From assembly GCA_965214485.1 (NCBI GenBank), contig CBDCBW010000010.1:130594-194593 (forward strand): a stretch of 64,000 nucleotides of DNA, written 5' to 3'. Every line of letters starts with the position of its first letter. Position 1 is the stretch's first letter. The translations under genes were made by a program, and so were the position numbers. The notes beneath the pieces were generated by a model, which saw only the letters and a list, made by a program, of their open reading frames with translations, was not told the origin of the DNA and ran no database searches. The DNA is from Rhodothermales bacterium (GTDB lineage: Bacteria > Bacteroidota > Rhodothermia > Rhodothermales > JANQRZ01). Below, piece after piece: positions 1,885 through 12,857 of this stretch.

Positions 1885-4800
1885 ATGTCTCACCCCATTT
1901 CCTCTGCGAGCCTCTCCGGGCCGCGCTCCGTCCCGCTCGCGCCGGCCCTTCTCCGCGCGGCGCTGCTCCTGCTGCTTCTCGTCGGGAGCGGCCTGACCGC
2001 CACGGTCTCTGCCCAGGGAGCCGTCGTAGACTTCATCCTCGTCGACGCTGAGGTGGACCGTGACCTCTCGGACTTCGGGAGCGAGTCCACGCTCGATACG
2101 AAGACCCTTCCCCCGTTCACGATCCGGGCCGAGACCGACCCGGACCAGGTCGGGAGCGTGCGGTTCGTGCTCACGAACGACTCGACCGGCGGCACCGTTC
2201 AGCAGGAGAACGACAACGTGCCGCCCTACGCGCTCAACAACGACGACGCCGGGGACTTCACCGCGCTCGCGCTCGCGGACGGGTCGTACACCCTCACGGC
2301 CACCCCCTACTCGGGCAGCAACGCGGGCGGCATGGCCGGCGACTCGCTCGTGGTCACCTTCACGGTGGTCTCGGATTCCACCGGCTCAGAGATCGAGTCG
2401 GGCGTCGAGGCCGAGGCCGAGGCCGAGGCCGAGGCCGAGGTCGAGGCTGAAGTGGCAGACGGCGTGGGCGCAGCAGCGGCGGCCATCGGCGCGGCAGCGG
2501 CGGCCTCGGGCAGCAACGCCGTCGCCGAGGCTTCCTCCTCGGCGTCCGGCGTGATCTCGCACCGCACCCCGGCCCCGCGCGACCCGGGCGCGCAGGCCCA
2601 GGACCCGTTCGCCGGACGGGCCTCGGCCCCGCCGACCCAGGCGCGCACCTTACTCGAGAGCGCCGAGGCGGAGTCCGAGTCCGAGGTCGAGGCTGAAGCC
2701 GAAGCCGAAGTGACGAACGGCGCTGCGGTCGCGATCGGCGGCACCTCGGCCGCCGCCGCCGCCGTCGGCACGAGCGTCTACCTCTTCGACGACGGCTCCA
2801 TCGACCCCATCCCCGGCGACACCGACGTGCGGACCGAGATTGGAACCTCGACCATCACCGACGTATCGCGCCTCCTCATTCCCTACTACGTGGACGACCA
2901 GGGGGACGAAGGTAGCGGTTCGGCGTCGCGGTCGCAGGACCCGGTGCTCGAAATCGACACCGAGGCCGAAGTCGAGGCCGAAGTTGAAGTCGAGGCCGAG
3001 GTCGACGTCACGCCGGGGGCCGCCGCAGCGGTCTCGACGGGCGGGGCTGCCGTCTCCGCCGCCGGGGACTTCGCCCGCACCGACACCGACCTCTCCGTCG
3101 CCACGTCCGCCGTCACCTCGACTGTGCGCGAGCGCCGCCCGGCCCTCTTCCAGGACCGCGAGGACGGCCCGAACGAAAACGGGGGCGGCGCGTCGCGCGG
3201 CACCTTCGACGAGGACTTCGCCTCAGTTCGGCGCGGGATGACCGACGGCAAGGGGCTGTTCGAGGCTGAGGCCGAAGCCGAGGTCGAAGCCGAAGCCGAG
3301 GCCGAGGCCGACAACAACGCGGCCGCCGCCGCGGGCGTCGCCAGCGGCGGGGGCGGCTCGACCGGGCTCGGGGCGACCTCGCAGGTCGCGGCCTCCACCA
3401 CGGCCTCGACCTCGACGCGCCGGTGGGCGGGCTACCTCTACCGCCTCACTGACGGCTACGCCTACTACCTCAACCGCCGGCGGGCCGGCGTGATCGTGGA
3501 CGAGGCCGAAGCCACCGCCGAGGTCGATCCCGTCATAGCCACCGCCACGATCCCTGACGACGGCCCGCCCATGACGACGGCCTCTTCGACGGCGACGGCC
3601 GACGGCGACGCCACCGCCACCGCCACGTCCAACCTCGCGGGGAGCTACGGATCCAACGCCGCGCGGGACGGCGGCGAGCCGGTTCTCCTTTCGGGCGGCT
3701 CGCTCGGCGGCGCGCAGCGCGAGGCCGGGACCCACGCCGCGCGGCCCGAGCGCTCGCCCGTCCTCGCCTCGGCGCACCGGAGCGGCAACCTCGAGTCCGA
3801 GGTCGAGTCCGAGGCCGAGGCCGAAGCCGAAGCCGAGACGGACTTCGAGTCGGCCTCGGCGGCGGCGGCGGCGGTGGCGGTGCAGGCCGAGAACGGGCTG
3901 CTCCCGACGCCCGCCGACGCCGCGGCGGCGACCTCGACCTCGACGAGCGTCTTCAACCGGGGCCAGAACCGCAACGCCGAACGCGTCGAGCCCGGCCCCG
4001 CGCCGGAGGGCGACCGGGGCGGCCTGCCGCGCCCGATCATCGACCTGTCGCACTTCGCCTTCGAGGTCGAGGCCGAAGCCGAGGCCGAGGCCGAGGTCGG
4101 CTACGTCGCCGGGGCCGCTGCGGCCTCCGCCGCCGGGGCGGGCCGCGACGACCTCCAGGCCGACACCCGCGCGGCGACGTCGCCCTACGCCGCCGCTGCC
4201 GCCGCCGCCACCGGCCCCGTCATCACCCTCTCCGTCTCGATCCCGACGGGGAACAGCTCAGGGTCCGTCACCGCGACCGCCACCGCCGACGACCCCGACT
4301 GCAAGGCCGTCGCCGTCGCCGTCGCCGTTGCGGGCACGCCGCACCTCGACGGCTCGGACAACGAGTCGGAGTGGGAGGACGAGACCGAGCCCGGCGAGTG
4401 CCGCCCGCTGTCGGTCTCGGTGAGTGTGCAGACGGACCCGTCCTCGGTGGAGACGCCCCAGTTCGCGCTCGAGGACCCCGGCCCCGCCGACAGCACCAAC
4501 GGCGGAGGCAGCGGCCCGCCGCCGCAGTTCGTCGAAAACGGCTTCGGCATCGAGAGCGAGTCCGAGGCCGAAGCCGAGGCCGAAGCCGAAGCCGACTACG
4601 GCGTCGCCGCCGCCGCCGTCGGGTCCGCCGCGGCCGGCCGCCGGCCCGTCGTCTCGGCCCGGACCTCGACCTCGACGCGGACCTACCGGGGGGGCTACGA
4701 CTTCCCCGACAGCGGGAGCTTCGCCCGGATCTCGGACCTCACCGGGACCGCCGAGGGCGACCGGGCCACGCTCCGGTGGGAGGCCGCCGACGGCGTCTTC

Positions 4801-5295
4801 CTCGTCGAGCACCGGCAGGGCGAGGACTTCGCGCTCGTCGGGACCGTCGAGGGCATCAGCGAGGCCCCGGCGCGGCGCGGCTACCTGTTCCGCACCGAAG
4901 CGCTCGCGCCGGGCCGCCACCGGCTCCGCGTGCGCCTGGCCGAGGGTGCCCCGCCCTCGCGCGGGACCGCCGCCGGGCCGGACGCGCAGAGCCTCACCGG
5001 GATTGAGGTGGACGTGGACATCGAGCAGGTCGAGCCCGTGACCGTCGGCGTCTACCCCAACCCGTTCCGGGATCGGACGCAGCTCGTCCTTCGCCTCGCG
5101 CGGGACCAGGAGGCGACGGTCGAGGCGTTCGACGTGCTCGGCCGGCGCGTGGCGCTGCTGCACGAGGGCGACCTCGAGGCGGGCACGACGCACACGTTCA
5201 CGCTCGACGCGCGCAGCCTCGCCAGCGGGGTCTACGTCCTCCGCGTCCAGGCGGGCGACGTGGTCCAGAACCACCGCGTCACGCTCGTCCGCTAG
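1885..5295 (+). CDS. Large secreted T9SS-sorted protein with repeated (Glu-Ala/Val/Ser)n + poly-Ala/Gly modules
   Basis: 1136 aa. N-terminal signal-like hydrophobic stretch (LLRAALLLLLLVGSGLTATVSAQG). At least 7 tracts such as EAEAEAEAEVEAEV, each followed by an Ala/Gly-rich segment. The C-terminal about 80 aa (VYPNPFRDRTQLVL...SGVYVLRVQAG...VTLVR) match the T9SS C-terminal sorting domain pattern. Confidence 0.8.
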   Translation: MSHPISSASLSGPRSVPLAPALLRAALLLLLLVGSGLTATVSAQGAVVDFILVDAEVDRDLSDFGSESTLDTKTLPPFTIRAETDPDQVGSVRFVLTNDSTGGTVQQENDNVPPYALNNDDAGDFTALALADGSYTLTATPYSGSNAGGMAGDSLVVTFTVVSDSTGSEIESGVEAEAEAEAEAEVEAEVADGVGAAAAAIGAAAAASGSNAVAEASSSASGVISHRTPAPRDPGAQAQDPFAGRASAPPTQARTLLESAEAESESEVEAEAEAEVTNGAAVAIGGTSAAAAAVGTSVYLFDDGSIDPIPGDTDVRTEIGTSTITDVSRLLIPYYVDDQGDEGSGSASRSQDPVLEIDTEAEVEAEVEVEAEVDVTPGAAAAVSTGGAAVSAAGDFARTDTDLSVATSAVTSTVRERRPALFQDREDGPNENGGGASRGTFDEDFASVRRGMTDGKGLFEAEAEAEVEAEAEAEADNNAAAAAGVASGGGGSTGLGATSQVAASTTASTSTRRWAGYLYRLTDGYAYYLNRRRAGVIVDEAEATAEVDPVIATATIPDDGPPMTTASSTATADGDATATATSNLAGSYGSNAARDGGEPVLLSGGSLGGAQREAGTHAARPERSPVLASAHRSGNLESEVESEAEAEAEAETDFESASAAAAAVAVQAENGLLPTPADAAAATSTSTSVFNRGQNRNAERVEPGPAPEGDRGGLPRPIIDLSHFAFEVEAEAEAEAEVGYVAGAAAASAAGAGRDDLQADTRAATSPYAAAAAAATGPVITLSVSIPTGNSSGSVTATATADDPDCKAVAVAVAVAGTPHLDGSDNESEWEDETEPGECRPLSVSVSVQTDPSSVETPQFALEDPGPADSTNGGGSGPPPQFVENGFGIESESEAEAEAEAEADYGVAAAAVGSAAAGRRPVVSARTSTSTRTYRGGYDFPDSGSFARISDLTGTAEGDRATLRWEAADGVFLVEHRQGEDFALVGTVEGISEAPARRGYLFRTEALAPGRHRLRVRLAEGAPPSRGTAAGPDAQSLTGIEVDVDIEQVEPVTVGVYPNPFRDRTQLVLRLARDQEATVEAFDVLGRRVALLHEGDLEAGTTHTFTLDARSLASGVYVLRVQAGDVVQNHRVTLVR
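2407..4594 (+). repeat. In-frame GAG/GAA-GCC/GTC hexanucleotide tracts (coding EA/EV repeats)
   Basis: Tracts start near 2407, 2662, 2962, 3262, 3792, 4072 and 4552. The first four are spaced about 255-300 nt apart. They generate the many RP-, GL- and AS-rich shadow ORFs in the track. Confidence 0.8.
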
Positions 5296-5365: not shown

Positions 5366-6754
5366 CTAGGCTTCCTGCTGCGCGTAGGCGTCGAGGAAGC
5401 GGATCGAGGCCTCGATGCCCTGGTGGAAGCGGTCGAGGCCGAAGCGCTCGTTGGGGCTGTGGATGGCGTCGGAGTCCAGGCCGAAGCCCATCAGCACGGT
5501 GTCGAGCCCGAGCAGCCGCTTGAAGTCGGCGACGACGGGGATCGACCCGCCCTCGCGCGTGAAGTGCGGGCGCTGCCCGAAGACACCCTCGAGCGCCTGC
5601 GCCGCCGCCTGCATCGCCGGAGCCGAGGTGTCGACGATGGCCCCGTGGCCGCCGTGGAGGTCGCGGAAGTCGAGCGTCATCGTCTCCGGAAGGTGCGCCT
5701 CGAAGTGGCGGCGGAGCTTGGCGGTGATCTCGTCCGGGGTCTGGTCCGGGACGAGGCGGCACGAGATTTTGGCCGTCGCCTTCGACGGGAGCACGGTCTT
5801 CGCCCCCTTGCCGGTGTAGCCGCCCCAGAGGCCGTTCACGTCGAGTGTCGGGCGGCCGGAGGTGCCCTCGAGGACGGTGTACCCCTGCTCCGTCTTGGCG
5901 GCCTTGACGCCGGCCTCCTCGCGCCACCGGGCCTCGTCGAACGGGAGCCGGCGGTAGCCCTCGCGCTCCTCGTCGCTGAGGTCGCGGACGCGCTCGTAGA
6001 AGCCCTCGACGGTGACGCGGTGGCCCGCGTCGTGCAGGTCCGCGATCATCCTGCACAGGGCGTTGACCGGGTTCTCGACGCCGCCGCCGTAGACGCCCGA
6101 GTGGAGGTCGCGCGCCGGGCCGGTGAGCTCGACCTCGACGTAGGCCAGCCCGCGCAGGCCGTAGGCGATCGACGGGACGCCGGGCGCGAAGAGCGACGTG
6201 TCCGAGACGAGCACCACGTCGGCGGCGAGGAGGTCCCGGTGCTGCTCGATGAACGGCGCGAGGTGGACGCTGCCGCTCTCCTCCTCCCCCTCGACGAGCA
6301 TCTTGAGGTTCACCGGCAGCTCGGCCCCGCTCTGGAGGTACGCCTCGGCGGCCTTGACGTGCATGAAGGCCTGCCCCTTGTCGTCGGCGGCCCCGCGCGC
6401 GACGAGGTTGCCGCCCTTGACGACCGGCTCGAACGGCGGCGAGTCCCACAGCTCGAGCGGGTCGGGCGGCTGCACATCGTAGTGCCCGTAGACGAGCACC
6501 GTCGGGGCGTCGTCCGAGACGCGGTGCTCGGCGTAGACGATGGGGTGGCCCGGGCTCGTGGGCGAGCCCGTCTCCATGACCTCGACTTTCCGGACCCCGA
6601 TGCGCCGAAGGTCGGCGGCGAGCCAGTCCGCCGCGCGGCGGGTGTCGGCGTCGTAGTCGGAGTCGGTCGAGATCGAGGGGATGCGGAGCCAGTCGGTGAG
6701 CTGCTCGACGAAGGGGTCGGCGTGGGACCGGGCGTAGGCGAGGGCGTCTTGCAT
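5366..6754 (-). CDS. M20-family dipeptidase / metallopeptidase
   Basis: 462 aa with the M20/M25/M40 pattern: IPSIS near the N-terminus, YGHYDVQP, GRGAADDKG, EGEEESGS. Confidence 0.75.
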   Translation of the reverse strand: MQDALAYARSHADPFVEQLTDWLRIPSISTDSDYDADTRRAADWLAADLRRIGVRKVEVMETGSPTSPGHPIVYAEHRVSDDAPTVLVYGHYDVQPPDPLELWDSPPFEPVVKGGNLVARGAADDKGQAFMHVKAAEAYLQSGAELPVNLKMLVEGEEESGSVHLAPFIEQHRDLLAADVVLVSDTSLFAPGVPSIAYGLRGLAYVEVELTGPARDLHSGVYGGGVENPVNALCRMIADLHDAGHRVTVEGFYERVRDLSDEEREGYRRLPFDEARWREEAGVKAAKTEQGYTVLEGTSGRPTLDVNGLWGGYTGKGAKTVLPSKATAKISCRLVPDQTPDEITAKLRRHFEAHLPETMTLDFRDLHGGHGAIVDTSAPAMQAAAQALEGVFGQRPHFTREGGSIPVVADFKRLLGLDTVLMGFGLDSDAIHSPNERFGLDRFHQGIEASIRFLDAYAQQEA

Positions 6755-9016: not shown

Positions 9017-9067
9017 CACTGTGCAAGCTATACCACTGTGCAAGCTATACCACTGTGCAAGCTATTC
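9017..9067. repeat. 17-bp tandem direct repeat x3 in a divergent promoter region
   Basis: cactgtgcaagctatac occurs at 9017-9033 and 9034-9050, and again at 9051-9067 with one mismatch. It lies between the ispH start (8876, -) and the secreted-protein start (9113, +). Confidence 0.9.
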
Positions 9068-9112
9068 CGGGCCGCTTGTGTTCGCCTCTCTCTCGCACGC
9101 CCTCTCCGAATC

Positions 9113-10684
9113 ATGTCTGTTGCACCCCGCCTCCTCGGCCTGCTCACCGCGCTCCTCGTGCTCACTGCTCCGGTCCGCGCGCAGTGGATCAACGAAGTCC
9201 ACTACGACAACACCGGCGGCGACGCGGGCGAGGCCGTCGAGGTCATCCTCCCCGAGAGCGCCGACCCCGCCGCCTTCGACCTCTACCTCTACAACGGCAA
9301 CGGCGGCGCGGTCTACACCGGCCCGCTCAACCTCGCAGGCTCCTTCACCGAGGGCGACACGGAGAATGGCTTCACGGTCTACTCGCGCGCCGTCGTGGTG
9401 CAGAACGGAGACCCGGACGGCCTCGCCCTGGCCGAGAACGGCGTGCTCGTCCCCGGCCAGTTCCTCTCCTACGAGGGCACCTTCACGGCCGTCGGCGGGC
9501 CGGCGGACGGCGCGACCTCGACCGACATCGGCGTGACCGAAGATGGGGACACACCCGTCGGGGCCTCGCTTCAACTTGGCGGGACAGGGTCGGCCTACGA
9601 GGACTTCTCGTGGCAGACCTCAGCAGACGACTCCTTCGGCAGCGTCAACGACGGGCAGACGCTGTCAATGCCCCTCCTGGCGCAGCTTCAAATCATCCAC
9701 AACGCGCCCGACCCGGCCTTCGCCGAGGTGGACGTCTATGTCAACGGCGACCTGCTCGAGGACGACCTCGCCTTCCGCAGCGCGACGCCGTTCCTCGGCG
9801 TCGCAGCGGACACCGAGCTGGAGGTCGCCGTTGCGCCCGGCACGTCGAGCAGCGCCGCCGACGCCATCTTCACCCAGACCTATGCCCTCGACGACGAGCT
9901 GAGCTACCAGCTCGTCGCCACCGGCGTCGGCGACGGCGACTTCGAGGCGAACCCCGACGGCAACGACATCGCCTTCACCCTCCTCGTCAACCCCGACGCC
10001 CGCCTCTTCTCGCCTACCCCCGACTCGACGCCGGACTTCAACTTCGTCCACGGCACGCCGGACGCCCCGGCCATCGACGTCCGCACCGGGGCGACGCAGG
10101 ACATCATCATCTACAACGATGTCGCCTTCGGCGAGCTCGCCCCCTACCAGCCCATCGCCGCTGAGCCGCAGACGATCGAGGTCACCACCGCCGACGGCAC
10201 CGCGAGCGTGGCGATGTTCGAGCTCGACCTCTCGGGCCGGCCCGAGGCTGCCGGGACGATCCTCGCCTCGGGCTTCCTCACGCCGGACAACGAGGACGAC
10301 GCCAACGGCACCCCGCCGGCCTTCGGCCTGCTCGTCGTCTTCGCCGACGGCTCCGAGACCTTCGCCGAGCCCCTCTCGGTTTCGAACGAGGGCGGCGCGG
10401 CGCTGCCGACGGCCTTTGCGCTGCGCGGCAGCTACCCCAACCCGTCGGCGACGCGGACGACGATCGCCTTCGACCTCCCCGCCGACGCCTCGGTCGGCCT
10501 CGACCTCTTCGATGTGCTCGGACGCCGGGTGCTGAGCCGCGCCCCGGAGCCGGTCGCAGCCGGCGCGGACCGGCGGCTGGCGGTCGAGGCGGCGCTGCCG
10601 AGCGGGGTCTACGTCTTCCGTCTGACGGCGGAGACGGCGGGCGGGCGGCTCGTCGAGAGCGGTCGGATGACGGTGGTGCGCTAG
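9113..10684 (+). CDS. Secreted T9SS-sorted protein, lamin-tail-like N-domain + DUF4397-like repeats
   Basis: Start at the ATG at 9113 gives a signal peptide MSVAPRLLGLLTALLVLTAPVRAQ. WINEVHYDNTGGDAGEAVEV resembles LTD domains. LQIIHNAPDPAFAEVDVYVNGD resembles DUF4397. The C-terminus has YPNPSATRTTIAFDL...GVYVFRL (T9SS CTD). Confidence 0.7.
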   Translation: MSVAPRLLGLLTALLVLTAPVRAQWINEVHYDNTGGDAGEAVEVILPESADPAAFDLYLYNGNGGAVYTGPLNLAGSFTEGDTENGFTVYSRAVVVQNGDPDGLALAENGVLVPGQFLSYEGTFTAVGGPADGATSTDIGVTEDGDTPVGASLQLGGTGSAYEDFSWQTSADDSFGSVNDGQTLSMPLLAQLQIIHNAPDPAFAEVDVYVNGDLLEDDLAFRSATPFLGVAADTELEVAVAPGTSSSAADAIFTQTYALDDELSYQLVATGVGDGDFEANPDGNDIAFTLLVNPDARLFSPTPDSTPDFNFVHGTPDAPAIDVRTGATQDIIIYNDVAFGELAPYQPIAAEPQTIEVTTADGTASVAMFELDLSGRPEAAGTILASGFLTPDNEDDANGTPPAFGLLVVFADGSETFAEPLSVSNEGGAALPTAFALRGSYPNPSATRTTIAFDLPADASVGLDLFDVLGRRVLSRAPEPVAAGADRRLAVEAALPSGVYVFRLTAETAGGRLVESGRMTVVR

Positions 10685-10758: not shown

Positions 10759-10859
10759 CTGTGTTTCGCCCGGCTCTACGCCTCCACATGTTTGCGAACC
10801 GGAGGCATTCCCTCTATCTTTGCCTCCTCTCCTGTTGTCTCTTTCTGAAACTCTATGTC

Positions 10860-12857
10860 ATGCGTATTCTTTTTTCGTTTAGCCTGCTTCTAGCCGTCAG
10901 CCCTGAGGTCCTCGGCCAAAGCGTCCGGATCAACGAGCTTCGCACCGGGCTGGTGGGGACCATCGGTGTCCAGGAGTACGTCGAGTTGGCGGGCCCGCCG
11001 GGCACCTCGCTCGACGGGCTGAGCTACCTCGTGATCGGGGACTCGCCCGAGGGCCGGAGCGGCGTCGTCGAGCATGTTACCACAGGGGGCGCGGGGACGA
11101 CTCTGCCGGACGACGGCCTCTTCGTGATCGGGGAGGGCCTGAGGCCCGGGCTGTCCGACGTGGAGGCACTGCTCAACTTCGAGGACCACGACAACGTCAC
11201 CCACCTCCTCGTGCGCGGCTTCACCGGCACCAACGGCGACGACCTCGACCTTGACGACGACGGCACGCTCGACGTGACACCGTGGGCCGAGGTGCTCGAT
11301 GCGGTCGGGCTCGAGGAGAGCACCACGATTGGCGACCCGGTCTATGCCGGGCAACTCGGCGGCCCGGTCGTCTCGCTGGTCACGCCCGGCCACGCGTGGC
11401 GCGACGGGGAGACGAGTGAGTGGCGAACCGGGTACGAGGGTCAGACCTTCGCCGAGGACACGCCGGGGGCGGCGAACAGCACGCTCGTCGGAGTTCCGCC
11501 CGTCTTCTCTCTGGCGAGCAGTCGCGCCTATGTGCTGGAGGGCGAGACGTTCGAGGTCCCCATCGTTCTCGACTACCCCGACGACCGACCTGACGGGCTT
11601 CCGGTCACCCTTCTCGTCGGCCCTTCGCACTTCCCCGACATTTACGCCGGTCTCTTCTTCGAGCGAACCACGCAGTACCTCACCTTCGACGGGACAGCGG
11701 ACGACGACACACTCGCTGTCCGCTACACGGTCGTGGAGGATGGGATACCGGGGACGAATGGATTGCAAATCTATTCGCTGGGCACCGGAGTTGCCGAAGG
11801 GGAGGCCACGCGGGCACCGGGGTTCGGGTTCGGGGTCTACATCGTCAACCGGGAAGCTCCCAGAAAACCTCGACTCCAACTCGTCCACAACGCCCCCGAC
11901 CCCGTCATGCACACGCTCGACGTGACGCTCACACCCACCGGTGGGAACGAGGCAACCGTCTTCGAGGACCTGGCCTTCCGCTCAGCCACCCGGTTTGCCG
12001 ACATCGACGGCGGGACCTACGAGGTCACGGTCTCCGACAGCGCAGACCCCAGCGTGGTCTACCTCTCGCAAACGGTGACGCTGGAGGCCGCCCGCAAGTA
12101 CCAGCTCACCGTCGCCGGCGTCGCCGACCCGAGCCGGTTCGCGCCGAACCCGGACGGGCAGGACATCTCGGCGCGCGTCCTGGTCAACCCGAACGTACTC
12201 GAACCCTGCTGCTTCGGAATCGAGACCACGTCTGCTGGGTTCACGCATGCCGCGCCCGACGCCCCGGCCATCGACCTTTACAACACCCGCATCGTGCCGG
12301 GCAACAATATCGTGTTTGGCTCCTTTAGCCCGGACTACGACGGCTCCTTTGGTTTCAACGCCGTCTCTGCCGAGACCTCAGAGGGCAGTGTAGACCTCGG
12401 CGGCGTCTCGCTCCCCTTCCAGCCGGACGGGGACTTTCCCTCGATGGTGCAGGCATCGGGCTTTCTCTCGCCCGAGGCTAACCAGAACGGCCCGGCCTTC
12501 GGGCTTATGATCGTCACACCGGGCGGCAGCACGTCGCTCTTCTCGGAGCAGCAGGATGCGGTGCAAACCGCTGCCAGCCTGAACGAGTTCGCCCTCCGTG
12601 GGGCCTATCCCAACCCCTTCGCCACCCGCGCCACGATCGTCTTCGACCTCCCCGCCGACGCCTCGGTCGGCCTCGACCTCTTCGACGTGCTCGGACGCCG
12701 GGTGCTGAGCCGCGCCCCGGAGCCGGTCACAGCCGGCGCGGACCGGCGGCTGGCGGTCGAGGCGGCGCTGCCGAGCGGGGTCTACGTCTTCCGTCTGACG
12801 GCGGAGACGGCGGGCGGGCGGCTCGTCGAGAGCGGTCGGATGACGGTGGTGCGCTAG
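10860..12857 (+). CDS. Secreted T9SS-sorted protein, paralog of 9113-10684 (LTD-like + DUF4397-like)
   Basis: Start at the ATG at 10860 gives the signal MRILFSFSLLLAVSPEVLGQ. INELRTG...YVELAGPPGTSL is LTD-like and LQLVHNAPDPVMHTLDV is DUF4397-like. The last 217 nt differ from the 3' end of 9113-10684 at only 2 positions. Confidence 0.7.
   Translation: MRILFSFSLLLAVSPEVLGQSVRINELRTGLVGTIGVQEYVELAGPPGTSLDGLSYLVIGDSPEGRSGVVEHVTTGGAGTTLPDDGLFVIGEGLRPGLSDVEALLNFEDHDNVTHLLVRGFTGTNGDDLDLDDDGTLDVTPWAEVLDAVGLEESTTIGDPVYAGQLGGPVVSLVTPGHAWRDGETSEWRTGYEGQTFAEDTPGAANSTLVGVPPVFSLASSRAYVLEGETFEVPIVLDYPDDRPDGLPVTLLVGPSHFPDIYAGLFFERTTQYLTFDGTADDDTLAVRYTVVEDGIPGTNGLQIYSLGTGVAEGEATRAPGFGFGVYIVNREAPRKPRLQLVHNAPDPVMHTLDVTLTPTGGNEATVFEDLAFRSATRFADIDGGTYEVTVSDSADPSVVYLSQTVTLEAARKYQLTVAGVADPSRFAPNPDGQDISARVLVNPNVLEPCCFGIETTSAGFTHAAPDAPAIDLYNTRIVPGNNIVFGSFSPDYDGSFGFNAVSAETSEGSVDLGGVSLPFQPDGDFPSMVQASGFLSPEANQNGPAFGLMIVTPGGSTSLFSEQQDAVQTAASLNEFALRGAYPNPFATRATIVFDLPADASVGLDLFDVLGRRVLSRAPEPVTAGADRRLAVEAALPSGVYVFRLTAETAGGRLVESGRMTVVR

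Follow-up and report, generated by a model that had tools for sequence, protein, structure and literature searches.

Curli CsgA and FapC are secreted bacterial proteins made of a fixed number of imperfect strand-turn-strand repeats with Gly/Asn turns; they have a tightly packed core of small or polar residues, are modelled by AlphaFold2 (AF2) as stacked strands and, in FapC, contain linkers of variable length. We describe here a protein that shares the repeats, turns and variable linkers and may also share the packed core and the stacking of strands. It is encoded at positions 1885-5295 of a 64,000-nucleotide stretch of DNA (the window) from a Rhodothermales bacterium (GenBank assembly GCA_965214485.1, contig CBDCBW010000010.1, positions 130,594 to 194,593 of the forward strand), and it carries seven tracts in which glutamate alternates strictly with another residue (Glu-x tracts). 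In contrast to curli and Fap proteins, to which it has neither sequence nor profile similarity, its predicted strands are about twice as long (14-17 residues) and number three per repeat, one of them entirely Glu-x; it has no N/Q ladder, ends in a C-terminal anchor and is flanked by Ig-like domains.

The antifreeze protein of Rhagium inquisitor (RiAFP) and the TxT solenoids also have long strands with a two-residue period, turning one residue type outward over a thin interior of Ala, Ser, Thr and Gly. In the window protein, however, Glu is the residue displayed and Thr/Ser occupy a separate strand, and the protein is about ten times larger, modular and equipped with long loops; a structure search of the PDB found no homology or fold match to RiAFP-like ice-binding folds. 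For the acidic matrix proteins of biomineralisation, Weiner and Addadi are said to have proposed the (Asp-Y)n beta-sheet hypothesis. The synthetic peptide (Ile-Asp)4, or 'ID8', is reported to be a calcium-responsive beta-sheet peptide that templates mineral (PMC9514854). Our tracts share with (Asp-Y)n and ID8 the alternation of acidic with small or hydrophobic residues, which would place all carboxylates on one face of a strand. Those sequences use Asp, are eukaryotic or synthetic and are often disordered or variable in length, whereas the tracts use Glu (90%, with 1.5% Asp).

RTX beta-roll adhesins and other repeat-rich surface proteins that leave the cell by the T1SS or T9SS (type I and type IX secretion systems) share with the window protein an extracellular location, high acidity, a beta structure built from repeats and marine bacterial hosts, but in homologues of our protein the RTX nonapeptides form a separate C-terminal module and the core lacks the GGxGxDxUx motif. 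The NCBI 'choice-of-anchor' families comprise one extracellular domain with different sorting signals. Our core behaves similarly, in that it occurs with a type IX secretion system (T9SS) C-terminal domain (CTD), an RTX/type I secretion system (T1SS) end or an LPXTG-type end in different phyla, yet no NCBIfam model of any kind matches it. The 'EA repeats' of flotillins are helical oligomerisation motifs. Bacterial flotillins carry them (PMC4409396), but these are cytoplasmic SPFH proteins, whereas ours is extracellular with predicted strands, has no SPFH/Band-7 match in Pfam or NCBIfam, and resembles them in its Glu-Ala runs. The yeast alpha-factor leader has two to three dipeptides that follow a Kex2 site and are discarded; the tracts described here have six to eight, are the best conserved part of their protein and tolerate Val, Ser, Thr and Ile. 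Nothing on the family came up when the full-text literature was searched with tract strings, Glu-Ala repeats and Glu ladders; the search returned only flotillin EA repeats, alpha-factor spacers, EAK-type peptides and curli.

Seven Glu-x tracts and their conservation

The gene is a complete open reading frame (ORF):

1885-5295, + strand: ORF of 1136 amino acids (aa) plus stop codon, with an ATG start, 93% GC at third codon positions and an intact ortholog of 70% identity

The GC content at its three codon positions (73/57/93%) is that expected in a genome of about 70% GC, which identifies this as the true frame. An antisense or alternative frame was rejected: the opposite strand gives Ser/Ala runs without homologue support. 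The composition of the protein is extreme, with 205 Ala, 114 Gly, 102 Ser, 102 Glu and only three Lys, and for the mature form the net charge is about -116 and the pI 4.1.

A regular-expression scan for strict Glu-x alternation located the following tracts, all of the form (Glu-x)6-8:

2407-2454, + strand: tract 1, EAEAEAEAEAEVEAEV, aa 175-190
2665-2712, + strand: tract 2, EAESESEVEAEAEAEV, aa 261-276
2962-3003, + strand: tract 3, EAEVEAEVEVEAEV, aa 360-373
3262-3309, + strand: tract 4, EAEAEAEVEAEAEAEA, aa 460-475
3793-3840, + strand: tract 5, ESEVESEAEAEAEAET, aa 637-652
4063-4098, + strand: tract 6, EVEAEAEAEAEV, aa 727-738
4552-4593, + strand: tract 7, ESESEAEAEAEAEA, aa 890-903

Each is followed by an Ala/Gly block, such as GVGAAAAAIGAAAAASG or NNAAAAAGVASGGGGS. 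The scan agrees with an earlier description of this DNA, made from its letters alone (the sequence-only reading), which had reported at least seven modules, each an acidic/small tract followed by an Ala/Gly/Ser block, and whose example strings are substrings of the segments found here. In all six frames of the 64 kb, no Glu-x tract occurs beyond these seven.

Among 5.8 billion clusters, the single sequence recovered 34 homologous proteins and a profile recovered 43. In the homologues alone, the Glu positions of the tracts hold E in 89.8% and D in 1.5% of cases, and the x positions hold A (50%), V (24.6%), S (8.7%), T (8.0%) and I (3.7%). These five, all small or beta-branched, together account for 95% of x positions, whose ten most frequent residues do not include Pro. 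Some tracts contain no Ala at all, as in the Winogradskyella example EVEVESEVEVEVE.

The lengths of the tracts are practically invariant. Segments of 18-22 residues spanning tracts 2, 4, 5 and 6 have the same length in 30/30, 30/31, 29/30 and 28/29 sequences, respectively, with the tract 2 segment measuring 22 aa in all 30. The ortholog of 70% identity agrees with the window protein in the length of all seven tracts, and every insertion or deletion between the two lies outside them. Relative to this ortholog, the ratio of non-synonymous to synonymous substitution rates (dN/dS) is 0.38 for the gene, 0.60 for the linkers, 0.14 for the modules and 0.05 for the Glu-x tracts, where dS reaches 0.81 and dN only 0.04. 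Judged from these alignments, the codons of the tracts have drifted while their amino acids stayed fixed, and the Glu-x tracts constitute the most constrained portion of the protein.

The DNA of the tracts points the same way. Tandem Repeats Finder does detect period-6 arrays within the ORF, and tract 1 contains five identical GAGGCC units, but five is the maximum; runs of identical hexamers are usually one to three units long. GAA codons, interspersed with GAG, make up 16/52 of the Glu codons inside the tracts and 7/50 of those outside, and genomes of 39% GC keep the tracts while using other codons of the GAA and GCT type.

Modular core of a family of marine bacteria

We ran AF2 with the family alignment, on the full protein and on the core alone. 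The full protein gave a mean predicted local distance difference test score (pLDDT) of 64.9 and a predicted template modelling score (pTM) of 0.58; the core alone gave 58.6 and 0.68, with 40% of its residues in disordered loops. Every tract was modelled as a strand of 12-17 residues, and pLDDT lay at about 75-89 within strands but fell under 50 in linkers. Each module of about 55 aa comprises three long predicted strands (Glu-x, Ala/Gly and Ser/Thr) joined by turns of two to four residues. Column profiles of the family show conserved Gly/Asn at the turns and a strict alternation of Thr and Ser in the third strand, of the ATSTSTS type. The modules are as follows:

2395-2568, + strand: module 1, aa 171-228 (AF2 strands 175-191, 194-208, 212-226)
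2653-2862, + strand: module 2, aa 257-326 (AF2 strands 261-276, 280-294)
2950-3120, + strand: module 3, aa 356-412 (AF2 strands 360-375, 380-393, 401-410; column profiles)
3250-3420, + strand: module 4, aa 456-512 (AF2 strands 460-475, 480-493, 499-510; length kept in 30/31; column profiles)
3499-3654, + strand: degenerate module 4b, aa 539-590 (family alignment, module hidden Markov models)
3781-3954, + strand: module 5, aa 633-690 (AF2 strands 637-652, 657-670, 677-688 at pLDDT 83-89; column profiles)
4051-4215, + strand: module 6, aa 723-777 (AF2, family alignment, module hidden Markov models)
4219-4434, + strand: divergent subdomain, aa 779-850 (short alternating AF2 strands; Cys806-Cys839 pair)
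4540-4680, + strand: module 7, aa 886-932 (AF2 strands 890-903, 908-919, 922-930; family alignment, module hidden Markov models)

Hidden Markov models (HMMs) of single modules cross-match other modules with E-values of 1e-6 to 1e-11, so the array arose by ancient internal duplication. Module 4b, which reads DEAEATAEVD here, is AEAEAEAEA in most homologues. The 770-aa core (aa 165-935) is thus an ancient array with a fixed number of parts, namely eight homologous modules of about 55 residues and one divergent subdomain. The short alternating strands of the subdomain include TATATA, AVAVAVAVA, ESEWEDETE and SVSVSV, and its two cysteines co-vary perfectly, both being present in 10 sequences and both absent in 17, a pattern that fits a putative disulfide in a folded extracellular domain.

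Between the modules the family is far more permissive. Across homologues the first three linkers span 26-60, 30-275 and 25-189 residues, and loops take up inserts of 140-275 aa. In P0037, a protein of 2326 aa from Aggregatimonas sangjinii, an insert of about 700 aa, made up of Big_9, cadherin-like and He_PIG domains, separates modules 2 and 3, while the remaining core modules and the T9SS CTD are intact. This natural domain insertion shows that the linkers are permissive loops and that the modules form the scaffold. The relatively high pTM despite 40% disorder suggests that the modules may pack into one rigid body.

The homologues are co-linear with the window protein over at least 900 positions, have the same module order and share non-repetitive landmarks (RxND...R, PGPAPxGxRG, VQAENGxLPTPA, DPxCxGVAVAVAVAG, DNExExEAE, TDPxD). 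An exhaustive HMM search of 1.84 billion representatives found the core covered by only about 45-50 of them; in thousands of further proteins the match was limited to the N-terminal domain or the RTX-like tail. Named hosts are the Flavobacteriaceae Winogradskyella maritima and Aggregatimonas sangjinii, Yoonia and Sulfitobacter (Rhodobacterales) and Ilumatobacter (Acidimicrobiia). All named host taxa are of marine type; they belong to four phyla, and their DNA ranges from 39% to 70% GC. A single-protein genome scan gave one ortholog, the 70%-identical protein already mentioned, in a Rhodothermales metagenome-assembled genome where the sizes and order of the flanking ORFs are similar; there the gene is intact, and the interruption that would mark a decaying gene is not seen in this relative. 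On this evidence the core belongs to a family that is rare, has no name and is strongly conserved among marine bacteria.

Some metagenomic homologues (P0026, P0028, P0029, P0030 and P0031) end early in sequence that looks out of frame, and in locus L006 an overlapping ORF follows P0030 (10001-12959 for the two together). Such early ends may reflect frameshifts of long-read assembly in the repetitive tracts, or real pseudogenes.

No catalogue places the core, and its homologues tie the repeats to no known fold family. The sequence-only reading did not recognise the architecture, and no Pfam, NCBIfam or PDB entry that we found covers it. In Pfam and NCBIfam scans of the window protein and 32 aligned members, only export, anchor and accessory domains matched, and none of the 32 members had a curlin/Fap repeat motif. 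A PDB search with the family sequence profile gave matches confined to the RTX parts of homologues. Foldseek found no PDB match at E <= 1e-3 for either the full or the core model. The best matches of the full-length model were weak and Ig-like (1.3e-3, at a template modelling score of 0.06). The best PDB match of the core model was the FapC amyloid (E = 2), and its best matches in BFVD were pectate-lyase-like and pentapeptide solenoids (E = 0.08-1), none of them significant. Public records name members after their accessory domains, for example 'T9SS type A sorting domain-containing protein' or 'tandem-95 repeat protein'. This is an undescribed, widely scattered extracellular domain family whose predicted architecture is unusual and without a solved counterpart.

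Export ends, flanking domains and surroundings of the gene

Outside the core, the window protein has these features:

1885-2013, + strand: Sec signal peptide, aa 1-43 (visual inspection of the sequence; AF2 pLDDT about 30)
2020-2370, + strand: N-terminal beta-sandwich domain, aa 46-162 (all-beta in AF2, pLDDT 75-96)
4741-5019, + strand: Ig-like beta domain, aa 953-1045 (AF2 strand pattern only, pLDDT 46-81)
5050-5292, + strand: T9SS type A C-terminal sorting domain, aa 1056-1136 (PF18962, TIGR04183)

This layout is the one that had been proposed from the letters, with its ORF of 1136 aa, signal sequence, N-terminal beta domain, Ig-like segment and T9SS sorting domain. By eye, the signal peptide shows Arg14 and Arg24, followed by the hydrophobic stretch LLLLLLV and, behind VSA, a likely cleavage site (VSA-Q, aa 43/44), and the ortholog and homologue P0001 have the same arrangement. 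The sorting domain, matched at aa 1056-1132, scores 33.1 bits with PF18962 (cut-off 27) and 32.8 bits with TIGR04183 (cut-off 23), above both curated cut-offs, and is the sole Pfam or NCBIfam match of the whole protein; the same scans found neither RTX nonapeptides (PF00353) nor a C-terminal T1SS signal. By these domain matches the gene encodes a protein exported by the T9SS and sorted through its C-terminus. The Ig-like segment is common to the T9SS-type homologues.

Other members carry the core on other ends. Across the family, 4-5 members have a T9SS CTD, 7-10 have RTX repeats and three have a T1SS C-terminal target domain, while P0027 ends in LPATG, a hydrophobic stretch and RRRR. Some members have Cadherin_5, Big_9, He_PIG or HYR domains, and the N-terminal domain is missing in P0017, P0013, P0021 and P0027.

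The N-terminal domain itself has no Pfam match, and a sequence search of the PDB gave only spurious matches to 'Pizza' designer proteins, with no stretch passing. In the HMM search it was present in thousands of proteins, often in tandem: 42 stretches matched in the 5527-aa P0035, and P0052 has seven copies and, judged by eye, a C-terminal tail of the T9SS type. The domain seems to recur widely, as a so far unannotated repeat, in giant surface proteins.

Upstream of the gene lies a further element:

1580-1884, + strand: upstream leader with an AT-rich island and a conserved last ~100 nt

The AT-rich island (about 1580-1640, aaaattatgctaattaatttcaatatataactttttttgacg) lies some 250 nt 5' of the start codon in a genome of 70% GC, and a C-rich leader of about 100 nt (1795-1884) is conserved with the Rhodothermales ortholog. 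Searches of the leader gave no Rfam match and no match to a sigma-70-type consensus, and no convincing terminator was found for the gene. The region 1580-1884 is probably promoter and 5' untranslated region (UTR), possibly a promoter of the Bacteroidota type with a long 5' UTR.

In the window, the neighbours encode an AMP-binding enzyme, an M20 dipeptidase, a methyltransferase, IspH and two DUF4397 proteins. Here and at four homologue loci the neighbours are unrelated housekeeping genes, and the gene thus stands alone. An M20 peptidase gene adjoins a family member in two unrelated genomes (window 5366-6754, - strand; locus L004, 14146-15432), but the two M20 genes have no detectable similarity (E = 0.45), and their adjacency is therefore a coincidence. 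The same holds for methyltransferases near the window gene and near the Winogradskyella homologue, which are not orthologous. The two adjacent DUF4397 genes (9038-10684 and 10761-12857, + strand) end in 270-nt segments (10415-10684 and 12588-12857) of 93% identical DNA. The shared 3' end encodes a tail that by eye resembles a sorting domain, with no CTD match at E <= 1e-4; it points to recent duplication or gene conversion of an export signal between neighbouring cargo genes.

Possible roles of a predicted glutamate face

As to what the tracts do, the idea that alternating Glu and small residues form beta-strands with one acidic face, one of three speculations in the sequence-only reading, is supported by the invariant lengths, the Glu/x composition, the dN/dS of 0.05 and the AF2 strands with their pLDDT of about 75-89 and small or beta-branched x residues. 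Our best overall explanation, and an evenly balanced one, is a glutamate-striped surface protein with a face that binds cations or minerals. Its structural part, a rigid, flat beta body bearing Glu stripes, we regard as quite probable from the models. With the two-residue alternation, every Glu in a tract would point to the same side of its strand; a thin, silk-like interior would consist of the small x residues and the Ala/Gly strand, with the Ser/Thr strand contributing one of its faces. The modules would pack into a single rigid, flat body whose surface bears stripes of about 50 carboxylates (52 in the window protein), spaced by about 7 Å along the strand, and which the C-terminus would hold on the cell surface.

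The functional part, by analogy, is more tentative and less likely than not: the striped face might bind in a polyvalent manner to cations or to surfaces that are cationic or mineral. Seawater Ca2+ and Mg2+ would then neutralise and stiffen the Glu lattice, and the lattice could act in adhesion or cation capture. Bolder, and rather unlikely, is the proposal of a new architecture in which a near-crystalline two-dimensional lattice of 50-64 glutamates forms a templating or adhesive face for Ca2+/Mg2+ or for minerals such as carbonates and metal oxides, in four phyla. The analogies to ID8 and (Asp-Y)n would support the chemistry of these proposals, not their biology; we know of no mineral association for these bacteria.

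Several points weigh against the favoured explanation. Mineral-associated proteins typically use Asp, and the 60:1 preference for Glu over Asp may fit a structural constraint of beta-propensity at least as well as mineral binding. The gene has no conserved partner genes in the window or at the four homologue loci. AF2 worked from shallow alignments of 28-32 sequences, its mean pLDDT came to only 59-65, and it can over-regularise repetitive sequence; the putative strand packing (parallel or antiparallel), sheet spacing and Glu lattice are read from the sequence pattern and the pTM only.

Alternatively, the stacked modules might form an open-ended solenoid that polymerises end-to-end or sheet-to-sheet into a cross-beta matrix fibre of the functional-amyloid or silk kind, with the Glu stripes as solubility gatekeepers or as a Ca2+/pH switch. 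Repeated strand-turn-strand modules with variable linkers and silk-like poly-Ala strands would suit such a fibre, and the fold matches of the core model, to FapC and to beta-solenoids, lean in this direction, although all are non-significant. Curli likewise consist of stacked repeats, which AF2 models well (PMC10192328). We nevertheless consider the fibre unlikely. No nucleator or secretion operon (csg, fap) lies beside the gene, in the window or at the four homologue loci, and the protein is not released but anchored through a C-terminal T9SS CTD or LPXTG. The number of modules is fixed, the flanking Ig-like domains would cap the ends, as described for non-polymerising solenoids, and some 50 like charges per molecule disfavour stacking.

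Equally low in our estimate stands a ligand-free role, in which the core would be a rigid stalk projecting the N-terminal and Ig domains, or a polyanionic shield giving the cell a hydrated negative coat. The extreme acidity of the protein, its C-terminal anchor and the adhesin-type domains (Cadherin_5, Big_9, He_PIG, HYR) that relatives fuse or insert are what one would expect of such a device. A stalk, however, would hardly have an optional N-terminal domain, and the core is conserved position by position (dN/dS 0.05-0.14), a constraint stricter than a spacer or charge cloud would require. The near-absence of Asp would also be unexpected if charge alone mattered.

Binding of ice or carbohydrate through a flat Thr/Ser array of the T-S-T-S-T third strands, with the Glu face secondary, seems very improbable. 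The Thr/Ser of these strands do alternate and are 65-90% conserved (for example aa 683-688), and the flat architecture of small-residue beta-strands recalls the Rhagium antifreeze protein. Yet the Glu strands are conserved above the Thr/Ser strands, the named hosts are not specifically cold-adapted, and no known ice-binding domain matched in Pfam or NCBIfam.

The second speculation of the sequence-only reading took the tracts for X-Ala spacers that dipeptidyl aminopeptidases would cut, freeing the intervening segments. Glu-Ala repeats are indeed the classical substrate of Ste13 in the yeast alpha-factor leader, and a gene for a cytosolic M20 dipeptidase adjoins ours. This neighbour is not conserved, however, and the M20 near the homologue is unrelated in sequence. 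Between 45 and 50% of x residues are V, S, T or I, Pro is not prominent among them, some tracts lack Ala altogether, and no dibasic or other cleavage site precedes any tract. The invariant tract lengths, the ortholog and the tract dN/dS of 0.05 argue against disposable spacers, since it is the tracts that are best conserved and best structured and the linkers that are least so; little credence is left for this idea. The weakest candidate is the third speculation, that the period-6 arrays and the GAGGCC run in tract 1 allow length or phase variation by slippage, or are low-complexity filler driven by GC content: it is refuted by tract lengths without polymorphism in the family and the ortholog, by dS far above dN, by the interspersed GAA and GAG and by the other codons of the 39% GC genomes, and its chance is negligible.

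Our analysis defines an unannotated extracellular domain family in which apparent low-complexity sequence is the most strongly selected part, and it offers a clean case of one core domain moving among T9SS, T1SS and sortase-type display. For genome scans, it teaches that strict dipeptide periodicity, invariant length and high dS with very low dN jointly separate structural repeats from slippage repeats. If the predicted architecture is true, its long strands, striped with Glu over a poly-Ala core, would solve a structural problem in a new way, of relevance to the cataloguing of folds and to the design of peptides and biomaterials (EAK- and ID8-type peptides, silk). If the lattice also acts as a template, the family would be a natural bacterial counterpart of the hypothesised acidic beta-sheet template of biomineralisation. 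The architecture, if true, may then bear on how marine bacteria deal with cations and with mineral or particle surfaces.

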